A stretch of 64,000 nt of DNA from Methanotrichaceae archaeon (lineage in GTDB: Archaea; Halobacteriota; Methanosarcinia; Methanotrichales; Methanotrichaceae): positions 55,581 to 119,580 of the forward strand of contig CAWDLW010000030.1 in assembly GCA_963803145.1 (NCBI GenBank). The letters are read 5' to 3'. Shown here in pieces: positions 30,563 to 32,930 of this stretch. The first letter of the stretch is position 1; every line of letters begins with the position of its first letter. The translations under genes were made by a program, and so were the position numbers. The notes below the pieces were generated by a model. It saw only the letters and a program-made list of their open reading frames with translations, had not been told where the DNA came from and made no database searches.

Positions 30563-30620
30563 TCTGAACATTCCGGTTCAGCGGCGGCGATACGCCATCC
30601 GCTGGGACCGGTTGTTAGCT
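30563..30620 (-). other. Integron attC site (58 bp)
   Basis: Minus strand AGCTAAC-AACCG-GTCCCAGC..GCTGAAC-CGGAAT-GTTCAGA = R''-5 nt-L''(8)..L'(7)-6 nt-R'; hairpin with extrahelical G and T on the bottom strand. Confidence 0.88.
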
Positions 30621-32913
30621 GACAGTTTTTTTCGCCGCCCTGTCAGAGGCCCTCGAAGACGTTTATGCTACGATCCGACGAGGTCGAAACGGTCAAGGTT
30701 CATGACTTTGTTCCACACCGCTACAAAGTCATGCAGGAACTTCTCCTGGGAGCCCTCAAATCCGTAGACTTCCGCCAAGGCCCGGAGCTGGGAGTTGGAA
30801 CCGAAGATCAGATCGACACGCGTGGCGGTCCACTTCAGTTCACCCGTCTTGCGATCACGCCCCTCGAACACGTCCCGGGCAACCGAAGCCGCCTTCCACG
30901 TCGTTCCCATGTCGAGCAGGTTCACGAAGAAGTCGTTAGTCAAAGCCTCCGGCCGCTTCGTGAAGACGCCGGCTTGGGTCTGTCCGAAGTTGGTATTCAG
31001 GACGCGCATGCCGCCTACAAGAACTGTCATCTCGGGCGCAGTCAGCGTCAGCAATTGCGCCCGATCGACCAGCAGCTCCTCGGCCGATACCGAGAATTTG
31101 GTTTTGAGGTAGTTGCGGAACCCATCCGCGACCGGTTCGAGCACGGCGAAGGACTCCACATCGGTTTGCTCCTGCGAGGCGTCATTGCGTCCCGGCATGA
31201 AGGGAACCGTCACATTTTGGCCGACATTCTTCGCCGCTTGCTCGATGCCGGCGCAACCGGCAAGAACGATCAGGTCAGCGAGGGAGACCTTCTTCCCGCC
31301 AGACTGGGCGCTGTTGAACGCGCTCTGGATATCCTCTATGATCTTGAGGACCTTCGCCAACTGAGCTGGCTGATTGATTTCCCAATCCTTTTGCGGTGCC
31401 AGACGAATGCGTGCGCCGTTCGCACCGCCGCGCTTGTCGGAGCCACGGAAGGTGGATGCCGCCGCCCAGGCCGTTGAAACCAGTTCCGACACAGACAAGC
31501 CCGAAGCCAGGATCTTGCCCTTGAGGGATGCAATGTCCTGTTCATCAATCAGTTTGTGATTGACGGCCGGAATTGGGTCTTGCCAGATGAGATCCTCAGC
31601 AGGAACCTCCGGGCCTAGATAACGTGCGCGAGGGCCCATGTCCCGGTGTGTCAGCTTGAACCAGGCGCGTGCGAACGCGTCCGCGAACTGATCCGGGTTC
31701 TCCATGAAATGCCGTGAAATTTTTTCGTAGACGGGGTCAAACCGCAGGGAGAGGTCGGTGGTCAGCATGGAAGGCGCAATACGCTTTGAGGGGTCGTGTG
31801 CAGCCGGTACGGTGCCGACACCTGCGTCACCCTTCGGTTGCCACTGATGCGCACCGGCCGGGCTCTTTGTCAGTTCCCATTCGTAGCCGAACAGGGTCCG
31901 GAAGTAGTTATTGCTCCACTTCGTTGGCGTGTTTGTCCAAGTGACTTCCAGGCCGCTGGTGATCGTGTCGGCACCTTTGCCCGTGCCAAAGCTGCTCTTC
32001 CAGCCGAGGCCCTGCTCCTCGACACCGGCAGCTTCAGGCTCGGGCCCCAGATGTTTCGCATCGCCGGCACCATGGGTCTTGCCGAAGGAATGGCCTCCCG
32101 CAATGAGCGCAACCGTCTCTTCGTCATTCATTGACATGCGAGCGAAGGTCTCGCGGATATCCCGCGCTGCAGCGATCGGATCCGGATTGCCGTTCGGACC
32201 TTCCGGATTGACATAAATCAGACCCATCTGCACGGCAGCGAGAGGATTTTCGAGATCCCTGTCGCCTGAGTAGCGCTTGTCACCCAGCCACTTATCTTCA
32301 GAGCCCCAATAGGTGTCTTGTTCCGGTTCCCAGAGGTCCTCACGCCCGCCGGCGAAACCGAACGTCTTGAATCCCATCGATTCTAGAGCGACGTTCCCGG
32401 TAAGGATCATCAGGTCGGCCCATGAAATTTTCCGGCCATACTTCTGCTTGATCGGCCAAAGCAGCCTGCGCGCCTTGTCGAGGTTGACATTGTCGGGCCA
32501 ACTGTTGAGGGGAGCAAAGCGCTGGTTACCGCCCCCTGCGCCGCCGCGACCGTCGCCTTTGCGGTACGTGCCGGCGCTGTGCCATGCCATACGAATGAAC
32601 AGGGGGCCGTAGTGTCCGAAGTCCGCCGGCCACCAGTCCTGCGAGTCGGTCATCAGCGCTAGAAGATCCTTCTTCACGGCCGCCAGGTCGAGACTCTTGA
32701 ACTCTTCAGCGTAGTTGAAATCCTCGTCCATCGGATTGGACTTGGAGGAATGCTGGTGCAGGATATCGAGCCGCAACTGGTTCGGCCACCAATCTCGGTT
32801 CGACGTGCCTCTGCCGGTCATGCCATCTTCATTCATAATGTTTACTCCTATCATTATCTGAATTGTTAAACAGCGCTACTAGAATAATCGTGTTTCGCTG
32901 CCCGTATAGCTAA
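30569..32913 (-). mobile_element. Integron gene cassette carrying katG
   Basis: Begins G^TTAGCT (32914-32908), single ORF, ends in attC whose R'' AGCTAAC is the exact complement. Confidence 0.82.
30668..32854 (-). CDS. katG: Catalase-peroxidase (start 32854 or 32836)
   Basis: [57 protein letters not shown]; visibly GC-richer than flanks. Confidence 0.98.
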
Positions 32914-32930
32914 CATTGATTAGTCCGCCT
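32908..32930 (-). other. attI-like recombination site
   Basis: Minus strand GGACTAA-TCAAT-GTTAGCT: degenerate L box, 5-nt spacer, core site; no attC hairpin upstream. Confidence 0.55.

Follow-up and report, generated by a model that had tools for sequence, protein, structure and literature searches.

An orphan integron-type katG cassette in Methanotrichaceae, probably of bacterial origin and spread as part of a larger block

Described integron cassettes in archaea and the katG locus

Archaeal integrons have been described from 75 archaeal MAGs in nine phyla, and 23 of the archaeal attC sites are 95–100% identical to bacterial ones (Ghaly et al., 2022, Sci Adv, PMC9668308). To be counted in that survey, a locus needed either an integrase (IntI) or two or more attCs within 4 kb, and singleton attCs were excluded. 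Its main text contains no catalase or peroxidase, and "Methano" occurs there once, in connection with an addiction-module cassette of Methanobacteriota. The experiments presented in it brought archaeal cassettes into a bacterial integron. Single-attC elements are likewise not reported by default in IntegronFinder 2.0, whose description states that they "can be true positives" (PMC9024848). For the gene family of interest, euryarchaeal KatGs have been ascribed to horizontal gene transfer between Proteobacteria and Archaea (Zamocky et al., 2012, PMC3523812), and the passages concerned name no vehicle. A full-text search of the literature, judged from titles and abstracts, found no description of a katG cassette.

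The katG gene analyzed here belongs to a Methanotrichaceae archaeon and lies in the window, which is the whole stretch of 64,000 nucleotides that was analyzed. The segment listed as the cassette proper in Table 1 is very probably a complete integron-type cassette of bacterial origin, which is an orphan in Methanotrichaceae and has probably spread there as a block of ~2.45 kb. Similar to bacterial integron cassettes, it has the R''/L''/L'/R' layout with 5- and 6-nt spacers, AAC/GTT cores, and an extrahelical L-box base. It also has a start that complements its own R'', a G|TT crossover, and one ORF on the attC strand, and sites of this kind occur in arrays beside IntI. In contrast to such cassettes, it is 2.3 kb long, carries a housekeeping-type antioxidant cargo, has a central spacer that can pair, and stands alone in an archaeal chromosome, and a third of its site family lacks the bulged base. 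As in the archaeal integrons and CALINs of the 2022 survey, attC-type sites are present in archaeal genomes and shared across domains. Unlike the cases in the parts of that survey cited here, the flow here runs from bacteria into archaea, and its recipient lacks an integron (PMC9668308). The locus also resembles the single-attC CALIN of IntegronFinder in having a lone attC and no integrase, but differs in that the site is validated by many independent copies rather than by a model score alone (PMC9024848).

These comparisons extend the archaeal record, from which single attCs had been excluded, to a methanogen family that is cultivable and of global importance, and they document a cross-domain flow opposite to the direction demonstrated experimentally in the cited parts of the survey (PMC9668308). 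The transfer proposed in the 2012 study agrees with the present trees, which add several independent entries (PMC3523812). Moreover, where its passages name no vehicle, the gene here is attached to a mobile unit with a recombination site. Since that site and the two cassette ends are still in place, an integron cassette can be recognized as the vehicle.

Table 1. Positions of the katG cassette, its flanks and neighboring features in the window
Feature	Position	Strand	Remark
katG gene cassette proper, 2,345 bp	30569..32913	minus	TTAGCT through G of R' core
katG, catalase-peroxidase, 722 codons, intact	30668..32836	minus	PF00141 twice, E 3.6e-74
Cassette leader, 77 nt, AGGAG ribosome-binding site	32837..32913	minus	bacterial copies alike
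3' spacer, 47 nt, katG stop (30668-30670) to attC	30621..30667	minus	conserved in L053, L084, L079, L041
attC, 58 nt	30563..30620	minus	begins 47 nt past katG stop
5' flank, 61 nt plus junction G	32914..32975	minus	Methanotrichaceae-specific; joined to katG in 11/11 loci
3' flank (TTCAGATCTTGGCCCAGAGTTTTTAGGATATCC...)	30528..30568	minus	common to most family copies, 15-43 nt alike
Variable IS-rich stretch with katG block	30528..38150		empty at syntenic site of same-genus genome G002
IS630-type transposase, two ORFs (HTH_23, DDE_3)	33355..34360	minus	neighbor, outside cassette
rve-type transposase ORF	34565..35560	minus	neighbor; 7 tblastn matches in genome
Host ORF, 100 codons, convergent with katG	30245..30547	plus	no Pfam family; block abuts its 3' end
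Pyridine nucleotide-disulphide oxidoreductase	28958..30049	minus	with paralogue 38378-39442 brackets variable stretch
Heme gene, ALAD	40189-41142
Heme gene, GluTR	41143-42393
Heme gene, NAD_binding_7	42341-43027
Heme gene, NirDL-like	43049-43507

The katG gene and its attC site

The 5' boundary of the cassette is G|TTAGCT (32914–32908), which is located 78 nt ahead of the katG start codon (ATG, 32836). The TTAGCT part (32913–32908) complements AGCTAA in the R'' box of the cassette's own attC, which follows the rule for circular cassettes. The GC content is 0.56–0.65 across 30600–32799, compared with 0.37–0.46 in both flanks, and the cassette as a whole has 59% GC in a genome of 45.4% GC. The first-pass annotation had presented katG as an integron cassette, GC-richer than its flanks and preceded by G^TTAGCT as the complement of R''; all of these points hold, the packaging being confirmed by the cassette ends and by comparative copies across contexts. 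It had also regarded the unit as unusually long. Cassettes are usually well below 2.3 kb, and this remark is correct, although the same attC family also includes a cassette with a P-type ATPase gene of 918 codons.

The encoded KatG is full length (1308 bits against PDB 5l05 across residues 7–719) and consists of two fused peroxidase domains. The distal R-W-H and the proximal His motifs are present, and the alignment to PDB 5l05 indicates that RMAWH and GKTHG are both retained. These residues presumably have the functional roles that they have in KatG enzymes generally. The leader is 78% alike over 79 nt in the bacterial locus L053, and alignments of the leader were also inspected by eye. A scan for sigma-70 promoters found two sites versus 1.5 expected, none of them within the leader. 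Contigs from three RNA runs (wetland and peat metatranscriptomes) overlap the coding part of katG, most of them just 90–95% alike, and the depth in these runs is 0–10 in the leader and attC bins. These contigs come from mixed organisms and therefore cannot be assigned to the Methanotrichaceae archaeon. Judging from its intact and highly conserved sequence, katG is presumably functional and may be expressed, and KatG loaded with heme b from the nearby ahb/hem genes would remove H2O2. These heme genes had been placed in the window from the start, and all four were recovered (Table 1). An mcrA gene (958 bits) is also present in the genome.

On the minus strand, the attC element consists of R'' AGCTAAC (30620–30614), the spacer AACCG, L'' GTCCCAGC, an 18-nt inner stem-loop, L' GCTGAAC, the spacer CGGAAT, and R' GTTCAGA (30569–30563). 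Boxes and spacers are thus located where they had first been annotated. R'' and R' take the places of the RYYYAAC-like and GTTRRRY-like boxes of attC sites, and both keep the conserved AAC and GTT. The element has a 2-nt bulge of extrahelical bases, and as single-stranded DNA it folds with z-scores of -4.6 and -5.6, values equaled by none of 200 shuffles. Pairing between R'' and the present R' is limited to AAC/GTT, as expected for an integrated cassette, and the present site is for this reason not self-complementary. The central spacer is nominally unpaired in attC sites but can pair here (CCG/CGG), which is atypical.

In an alignment of 36 sequences of this site family, 94% of the cells in stem columns pair, nine pairs change on both sides, and none of 500 shuffles matches this covariation. 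The three AAC/GTT pairs are standard in 32, 31, and 34 of the 36 rows, and these columns lie outside the pattern by which the 36 sequences and the metagenome loci were collected. A bulged C (GTTC-C-AGC) is present in 25 of the 36 aligned sites, and the other 11 have perfect stems, which are atypical for attC. A covariance-type attC model built here (R1) had the element of the window among its training sequences, and the 75-bit match at that element is therefore by construction. With filters off, R1 found no further site in the window (next best 10 bits, E 1.5), and over the archaeon's own genome it found this one site and no other. A blastn-short search with the 58-nt element and both conserved flanks also found no second copy in this genome.

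Distribution of the cassette in bacteria and Methanotrichaceae

The same katG with the same 3' element was found in bacteria of three phyla, and the cassette circulates among anaerobic bacteria. An attC-type element follows katG in the bacterial loci L053 (91% alike over 100 nt), L084, and L079, and among the bacterial KatG loci of representative genomes the site is present at just three of 79. A scan of metagenomes gave at least 120 matching stretches; among the 80 loci listed, 35 have family-like hairpins and 45 do not. Directly 3' of katG lie 21 of these 35 hairpins among the matches listed, hence on at least 21 contigs. Among the same listed matches, R'' AGCTAAC is found in 14 of the 21 katG-linked copies, and GTT is kept in 20 of them, followed by 15 different R' 7-mers.

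Similarity between contexts stops at G|TT on the 3' side and at G|TTAGCT on the 5' side. The 5' limit is common to the unrelated contexts L053, L165, L183, and L191, and in each of them the cassette start complements its own R''. Furthermore, TTAGCTAGATGGGCA follows the G in L053, L165, and L183, which have nothing in common before the G, and L191 and L075 represent a short-leader variant at this limit. These limits have a few exceptions, as L004, L008, and L053 diverge 3–4 nt sooner and L002 is truncated within the stem.

The rule that links start and R'' extends to other cassettes of the family. In L183, the katG cassette is followed by another cassette that starts with TTCGCC and has an attC with R'' GGCGAAC, and a cassette in L158 starts with TTATGT and has R'' ACATAAC. 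Same-strand arrays in which each site comes just after an ORF are present in L188 (four sites) and in L185, L158, and L157 (two each), and the array cargo consists of diverse, unrelated ORFs. In the genome G041 (contig C16), ORF-attC units lie on the cassette side of an IntI gene (381 bits versus a cut-off of 265). The R1 model also matches the attCs in the IntI-linked array and in the metagenome arrays. A katG cassette directly beside IntI was not seen among the loci examined, and in G041 and G042 katG and IntI are on different contigs. Three further loci were considered as integrons and rejected. L186 has only a 45-residue IntI-like piece, convergent and ~600 nt past the attC on a 1-kb contig, and L147 and L092 have weak Xer-like matches only.

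In Methanotrichaceae, the cassette is an orphan, with no integrase, attI, or second attC. The best IntI (TIGR02249) match in the archaeon's own genome scores 48.8 bits versus the cut-off of 265, none of the 105 family genomes has an IntI at E<=1e-30, and the positive controls G041 and G042 score above the cut-off. A tblastn search of the window with the G041 IntI found no remnant (best E 0.86). R1 sites occur in 30 of the 105 family genomes, one site per genome and 27 of them beside katG, with no array and no case of two or more attCs within 4 kb. The gene itself is present in 45 of the 105. The integron-mediated capture from a bacterium that was initially proposed is supported in part. The cassette is real and foreign, but neither this genome nor the family has an integron.

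The same extra flanks accompany the cassette in no fewer than 27 family genomes, and the capture is accordingly not specific to this genome. The shared flanks indicate that travel within the family involved a larger block and not attC recombination. In most family genome pairs, the common 5' limit is 137–140 nt ahead of the ATG. A 302-nt upstream query matched 16 of the 105 family genomes, and its last 60 nt are joined to katG at all 11 loci examined. This 5' flank contains AATATAT and may act as an archaeal promoter. On the other side, a 23-nt pattern of the 3' flank, scanned over the 105 genomes with mismatches but not indels allowed, had its only matches in G000 and G047, in each case beside katG; most copies were missed because of an extra A. 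This 3' flank is also present in a closed Methanosarcinaceae genome, where it comes after a fossil of the cassette. Given the common flanks of 61 nt and 15–43 nt, a single entry followed by movement as a ~2.45-kb block without use of attC is indicated. In addition, the g8 lineage (L008) has a KatG of a different clade with an attC and without the common flanks, so at least two entries into the family took place.

The ends of the block are rather sharp, and no mechanism accounts for them. As a transposon or MITE, the block lacks terminal inverted repeats joining its ends in the window or in L022. The neighboring IS630 and rve elements are not constant companions of the gene, as both are absent beside katG in 17 other loci. 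A TACCGG direct repeat at both block ends in G005, seen by eye, is inconsistent across genomes.

The locus is variable within the genus. In the genome G002, C1:1639983-1641676 matches the window up to ~30535 and C1:1643245-1643534 matches ~38150–38500, and the syntenic site without the block contains a homologue of the 100-codon host ORF. The katG of G002 lies elsewhere, at C1:972430. The expectation that relatives would lack the cassette at this locus was thus borne out for G002, and the vertical, genus-syntenic katG that would have spoken against it was not observed. The Methanotrichaceae KatG clade (support 95–97) is placed among bacterial and attC-bearing rows, in line with the nesting that the first-pass annotation had suggested as a check. 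The AU test rejects both a single archaeal KatG clade (p 6.6e-43) and a single family clade (p 1.9e-5). Since the trees reject a single archaeal clade, several transfers from bacteria to archaea are indicated. By its GC content, the empty site in G002, and its nesting among bacteria, the katG cassette is foreign to this archaeon.

Route of entry and alternative readings

In bacteria, the cassette circulates via integrons, with its ends representing canonical G|TT crossover points. The family probably received it once from bacteria, as the common flanks suggest, and the ~2.45-kb block would later have been inherited or exchanged without its attC, most likely through ordinary recombination of taken-up DNA. 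In the present genome, the block lies in the IS-rich stretch between the two paralogous oxidoreductase genes. Two hypotheses differ in how the flanks were acquired.

One hypothesis is that the archaeal chromosome acquired, by illegitimate or IS-assisted recombination, a piece of a bacterial integron that extended from an attI or part of a neighboring cassette through the katG cassette into the beginning of the following one, such that the flanks are bacterial. This is a possibility to be taken seriously, though not the outcome that would be expected. The 3' flank starts where a next cassette would, and the 61-nt 5' flank is about the size of an attI (attI1 is ~65 bp). Moreover, the corresponding flank in L177 holds AGCTAAC 33 nt before G|TTAGCT, and the window copy lies among IS elements, the IS630 having 47–49 tblastn matches in the archaeon's own genome. 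Against this hypothesis, the flanks are absent from the bacterial loci examined, no IntI remnant accompanies the putative attI, neither transposase adjoins katG in the 17 other loci, and the block ends lack terminal inverted repeats.

Alternatively, and in line with the integron-mediated capture initially proposed, a transient bacterial element may have supplied an integrase in trans that placed the katG cassette, in circular form, directly into a Methanotrichaceae chromosome at a secondary G|TT site, in which case the flanks are archaeal. Both junctions are at the canonical crossover (...CCATG|TTAGCT and ...GGAATG|TTCAGA), and secondary GWTMW sites, to which GTTCA conforms, are known targets of cassette insertion by IntI1. 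Both flanks are AT-rich and host-like, and neither was found in the bacterial or non-family metagenome loci examined. The 5' flank was also considered as an upstream attC, which would be expected had it come from a bacterial array, and rejected, as it has no R1 match, no AAC box, and a fold z-score of -0.6. This explanation is nonetheless rather doubtful. No IntI above the cut-off is present in the 105 family genomes and no remnant in the window, and IntI activity in an archaeal cell is an assumption. In addition, neither the upstream query nor the 3'-flank scan found the uninterrupted target (...CCATG then TTCAGATC...) in family genomes, and the 5' flank is always joined to katG at the 11 loci.

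A more far-reaching interpretation is that integron cassettes serve as a working vehicle from bacteria to archaea, including lineages without an integron of their own. In this view, a trans-acting integrase delivered the gene, the 61-nt archaeal flank supplied a promoter, and the domesticated block spread among the main acetoclastic methanogens of wetlands and also reached Methanosarcinaceae, as a peroxide defense of strict anaerobes. Taken as a whole, this chain of events is unlikely. The presence or absence of the block (katG in 45 of 105 genomes) could be compared with how well Methanothrix-type methanogens tolerate oxygen in oxic-anoxic wetland soils.

It is highly improbable that the hairpin is merely a transcription terminator or a chance look-alike behind an old, vertically inherited katG, and this reading is contradicted by several results. 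In its favor, the stem is very stable and perfect in 11 of the 36 copies, and the bare geometry is at the level of chance. A strict scan (AAC, 5 nt, L''...L', 5 or 6 nt, GTT) found 83 sites in this 4.1-Mb genome versus 163 in a control with the sequence reversed, and it misses the element in the window because of the 2-nt bulge. Taken alone, the canonical geometry to which the first-pass annotation had pointed is therefore not significant, and it is the comparative evidence that lifts the observation above chance. A terminator at this position was rejected, since the stem is followed by no T-run and nothing terminator-like was called at the element. The AAC and GTT boxes, which lie beyond the stem, are conserved, many contexts respect the G|TT limits, and sites of the same family come after unrelated ORFs in arrays and beside IntI. 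A vertical katG is likewise at odds with its other locus in the same-genus genome, the empty syntenic site, the GC difference (59% versus 45%), and the AU test against archaeal monophyly.

The chance that bacterial contamination or a chimeric join in the MAG explains the locus is negligible: a CheckM-type figure of 6.77% and a contig from the DNA run X1 that differs left of ~30555, at the left junction, would fit such an explanation, but a contig from this run spans the right junction (32747–33250) with one difference, the locus is flanked on either side, within its 119.6-kb contig, by archaeal RNA polymerase, ribosomal protein S7, and heme genes, and the same block is found in at least 27 family genomes, with copies in G002, there on a 2.2-Mb contig, and in the closed genomes G084 and G171.

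The katG gene and its attC element

The katG reading frame starts at the ATG at 32836, which has an AGGAG ribosome-binding site upstream; an in-frame ATG at 32854 is a less likely start. The encoded protein contains PF00141 in two stretches (E = 3.6e-74), and residues 7-719 align to PDB 5l05, a solved catalase-peroxidase (1308 bits). Relative to this structure, it keeps the motifs of the distal Arg-Trp-His, proximal His, and Met-Tyr-Trp adduct. As the first-pass annotation had noted, the gene is GC-richer (0.56-0.65) than both flanks (0.37-0.46), and the whole genome is at 45.4%. 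The heme genes that it named are also found in the window, together with archaeal RNA polymerase A' and ribosomal protein S7, and the genome contains mcrA (958 bits). The RNA contigs compared with the window come from mixed organisms.

The same annotation read katG as an integron cassette, pointing to attC-type boxes after the gene and to G|TTAGCT (crossover point marked) before it, and both are present. The attC begins 47 nt 3' of the stop codon. As single-stranded DNA, this 58-nt element has fold z values of -4.6 and -5.6, and its present R' and R'' boxes pair at AAC/GTT only. The geometry by itself proves little, as a strict scan returned 83 sites in the genome vs 163 in a reversed-sequence control.

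Coordinates of the features in the window and in L320, a locus of the closed Methanosarcinaceae genome G171
Feature	Position	Strand	Remarks
Oxidoreductase paralogue (pyridine nucleotide-disulphide)	28958-30049		brackets variable stretch
Variable stretch	30528-~38150		katG block, IS630-type element, rve-type ORF, TPR ORF, DUF5677 ORF
attC	30620-30563	minus	AGCTAAC-AACCG-GTCCCAGC-(18 nt)-GCTGAAC-CGGAAT-GTTCAGA
katG	30668-32836	minus	722 codons
Cassette 5' limit, G|TTAGCT	32914-32908
IS630-type element	33355-34360		HTH and DDE_3 ORFs with a frameshift-like overlap
Oxidoreductase paralogue (pyridine nucleotide-disulphide)	38378-39442		brackets variable stretch
G171 cassette fossil	L320 8763-9037
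G171 full katG	L320 14903-17041

Cassette ends and attC arrays in other genomes and metagenomes

Among the genomes compared, many of which are MAGs, katG is present in 17 of 41 relatives in a first sample and in 45 of 105 family genomes. In several genera the 3' element accompanies katG, with compensatory changes in the stem of the element. It also lies behind katG in three bacterial genomes, namely a delta-proteobacterial MAG (L053; 91% match over 100 nt), a Thermodesulfovibrionia MAG, and a Chloroflexia MAG. Only 3 of the 79 KatG loci taken from representative bacterial genomes have the site. Metagenome contigs scanned for two invariant 9-10-nt motifs gave at least 120 stretches. The 80 loci among the matches listed comprise 35 family-like hairpins and 45 unrelated matches, and at least 21 of these hairpins (21/35 among the matches listed) lie directly 3' of katG. 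Among these 21 listed copies, R'' is AGCTAAC in 14, and GTT is kept in 20 and followed by divergence, with 15 different R' 7-mers. This AAC/GTT conservation is not a product of construction because both boxes lie outside the scanned motifs. In an alignment of 36 sites, 94% of cells pair and nine pairs have changed on both sides, which none of 500 shuffles equaled. At the 5' end, L053 and two further loci (L165 and L183) have TTAGCTAGATGGGCA... in common after the G and show no likeness before it, and L191 and L075 have a short-leader variant starting with TTAGCT or TTGGCT. With its ends compared across these contexts, the segment 30569-32913 therefore has both boundaries and the complementarity between start and R'' that define an integron cassette.

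Related sites also occur in arrays. The covariance model R1 was built from the 36 sites and gives rough E-values; its match to the site in the window is expected, as that site was used in training, and the informative matches are those outside the training set. The delta-proteobacterial MAG G041 has four same-strand R1 sites, each just 3' of an ORF and on the cassette side of an integron integrase (IntI; 381 bits, cut-off 265), and one of them has perfectly complementary boxes (CCCTAAC and GTTAGGG). Among the metagenome contigs, L188 has four same-strand sites, each behind an ORF, and L185, L158, and L157 have two each. The cassette next after katG in L183 begins with TTCGCC and is closed by a site with R'' GGCGAAC; the corresponding pair in L158 is TTATGT and ACATAAC. 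Array cargo includes a 918-codon P-type ATPase, Imm33-like, HAD, SIR2-like, and radical SAM proteins, and unknowns. In the loci examined, no katG cassette was seen directly beside an IntI. A 1,029-nt metagenome contig (L186) encodes at positions 2-136 a 45-residue stretch with 47% identity to the G041 integrase, about 600 nt beyond a katG attC and reading towards it; this piece is too short for interpretation. Each IntI gene of G041 is split after model position 267 by a ~3.5-kb insert common to all (L266, G041:C16:312000-331900, at ~4458-9999; also in contigs C4, C7, C10, C15, and C20). This insert encodes three tyrosine-recombinase-like ORFs and looks like a recombinase-in-trio element; seven trio copies were seen.

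Origin of the cassette and entry into Methanotrichaceae

KatG trees (FastTree of 106 sequences and a quick ML tree of 47, both with midpoint root only) place the Methanotrichaceae homologs with shared flanks in one clade, with support of 95 and 97. This clade adjoins bacterial and attC-bearing metagenome sequences, in agreement with the nesting among bacteria that had been proposed as a check. Other archaeal KatGs lie elsewhere among bacteria, namely those of the g8 lineage (L008), L006 with Methanocalculus, two Methanosarcinaceae groups, and a Methanobacteriaceae MAG. With groups named by taxonomy after the first tree had been seen, AU tests rejected a single archaeal clade (p = 6.6e-43) and a single Methanotrichaceae clade (p = 1.9e-5). 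Euryarchaeal KatGs have been ascribed to HGT (Zamocky et al., 2012, PMC3523812). Taken as a whole, sequence comparison gives good support to the katG unit being an integron cassette of bacterial origin.

Within the family, 30 of 105 genomes have an R1 site, with a single site in each, and 27 of these sites lie beside katG; R1 likewise finds one site in this genome. The 61 nt before G|TTAGCT are common to all family copies examined (11/11 loci), and in most pairs the limit of the shared 5' flank lies 137-140 nt upstream of the ATG. Most copies also have 15-43 nt in common after G|TT. These flanks contain no detected attC features, and neither was seen in the bacterial loci examined. In the g8 lineage, katG belongs to another clade and has an attC but not these flanks. 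In L277 (G104:C23:254153-257212), the 5' flank, leader, and first katG codons are tandemly duplicated ~150-300 nt before the ATG. The three R1 sites away from katG, in L309 (G080:C270), L314 (G105:C22), and L315 (G046:C17), each at ~1501-1560, are canonical-looking, with R'' and R' complementary at 6/7 positions in two. They lie in incomplete Methanotrichaceae MAGs and may represent further orphan cassettes, or bacterial contigs binned in error.

The first-pass annotation proposed integron-mediated capture, probably from a bacterium. Cassette identity and bacterial origin are well supported. No integrase was found on the archaeal side: none of 105 family genomes has an IntI match at E<=1e-30, the best match in this genome scores 48.8 bits, and no IntI remnant was found in the window. 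The attC plays no visible part within Methanotrichaceae. Integron-mediated capture at a secondary site is one possible route, and transfer of an integron fragment to the archaeon also fits. Junctions at the canonical crossover on both sides and non-integron-looking flanks are consistent with secondary-site insertion, although neither an integrase nor an empty target was found in the family genomes searched. Integrons are reported in 75 archaeal MAGs (Ghaly et al., 2022, PMC9668308), in a survey that excluded singleton attCs and does not mention catalase in its main text. Single-attC elements can be true (IntegronFinder 2.0, PMC9024848). Judged by titles and abstracts, no paper found deals with a katG cassette or with the mobility of Methanothrix KatG.

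In the closed 5.1-Mb genome G171, the locus L320 (G171:C1:3566000-3585000) contains a cassette fossil consisting of the 3'-terminal 79 nt of katG, in which TGA replaces a Trp codon, the attC, and a Methanotrichaceae-type 3' flank. A full-length, 87% identical katG lacking leader and attC lies 6 kb away. A second conserved katG 3' module without attC (~150 nt, ending in a hairpin, GGCGGCGTTTCA...TGAAACGCCGCC, and a T-run) lies ~100-180 nt after the stop codon in Methanosarcinaceae (L011 and L012) and in bacteria of several phyla (L042, L043, L044, and L082). Transfer of katG between domains therefore seems to use two or more types of packaging.

The chromosomal locus

The expectation that a relative would lack the cassette at this locus was borne out by the same-genus genome G002. 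Its syntenic place has the oxidoreductase and a 100-codon ORF, then sequence matching window 38150-38500, and its katG block (96% KatG protein identity) lies elsewhere on the 2.2-Mb contig. No terminal inverted repeats were found at the ends of the katG block, and no IS630-type or rve-type elements lie beside katG in the 17 other loci examined. Across the 4.1-Mb genome, tblastn with the IS630-type element gives 47-49 matches, an unusually heavy IS load; the genome exceeds its relatives in size by ~1 Mb. At the junction between host DNA and the katG block (30533-30551), the stop codon of the window's 100-codon ORF falls within an imperfect palindrome, TTTTGGATATCC(T)AAAA, which lies partly within the conserved 3' flank of the block. 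Short sequences at 35693-35752, 36873-36984, and 37900-38260 are found many times over in G001 and G002, both of the same genus (for the last sequence, tens of matches), and probably represent MITE-like repeats or IS ends. The G002 katG block is also flanked by two of them. The oxidoreductase paralogues bracket the stretch in G002 as well, ~2.4 kb apart vs 8.3 kb here, and such paralogous repeats may make the site recombination-prone.
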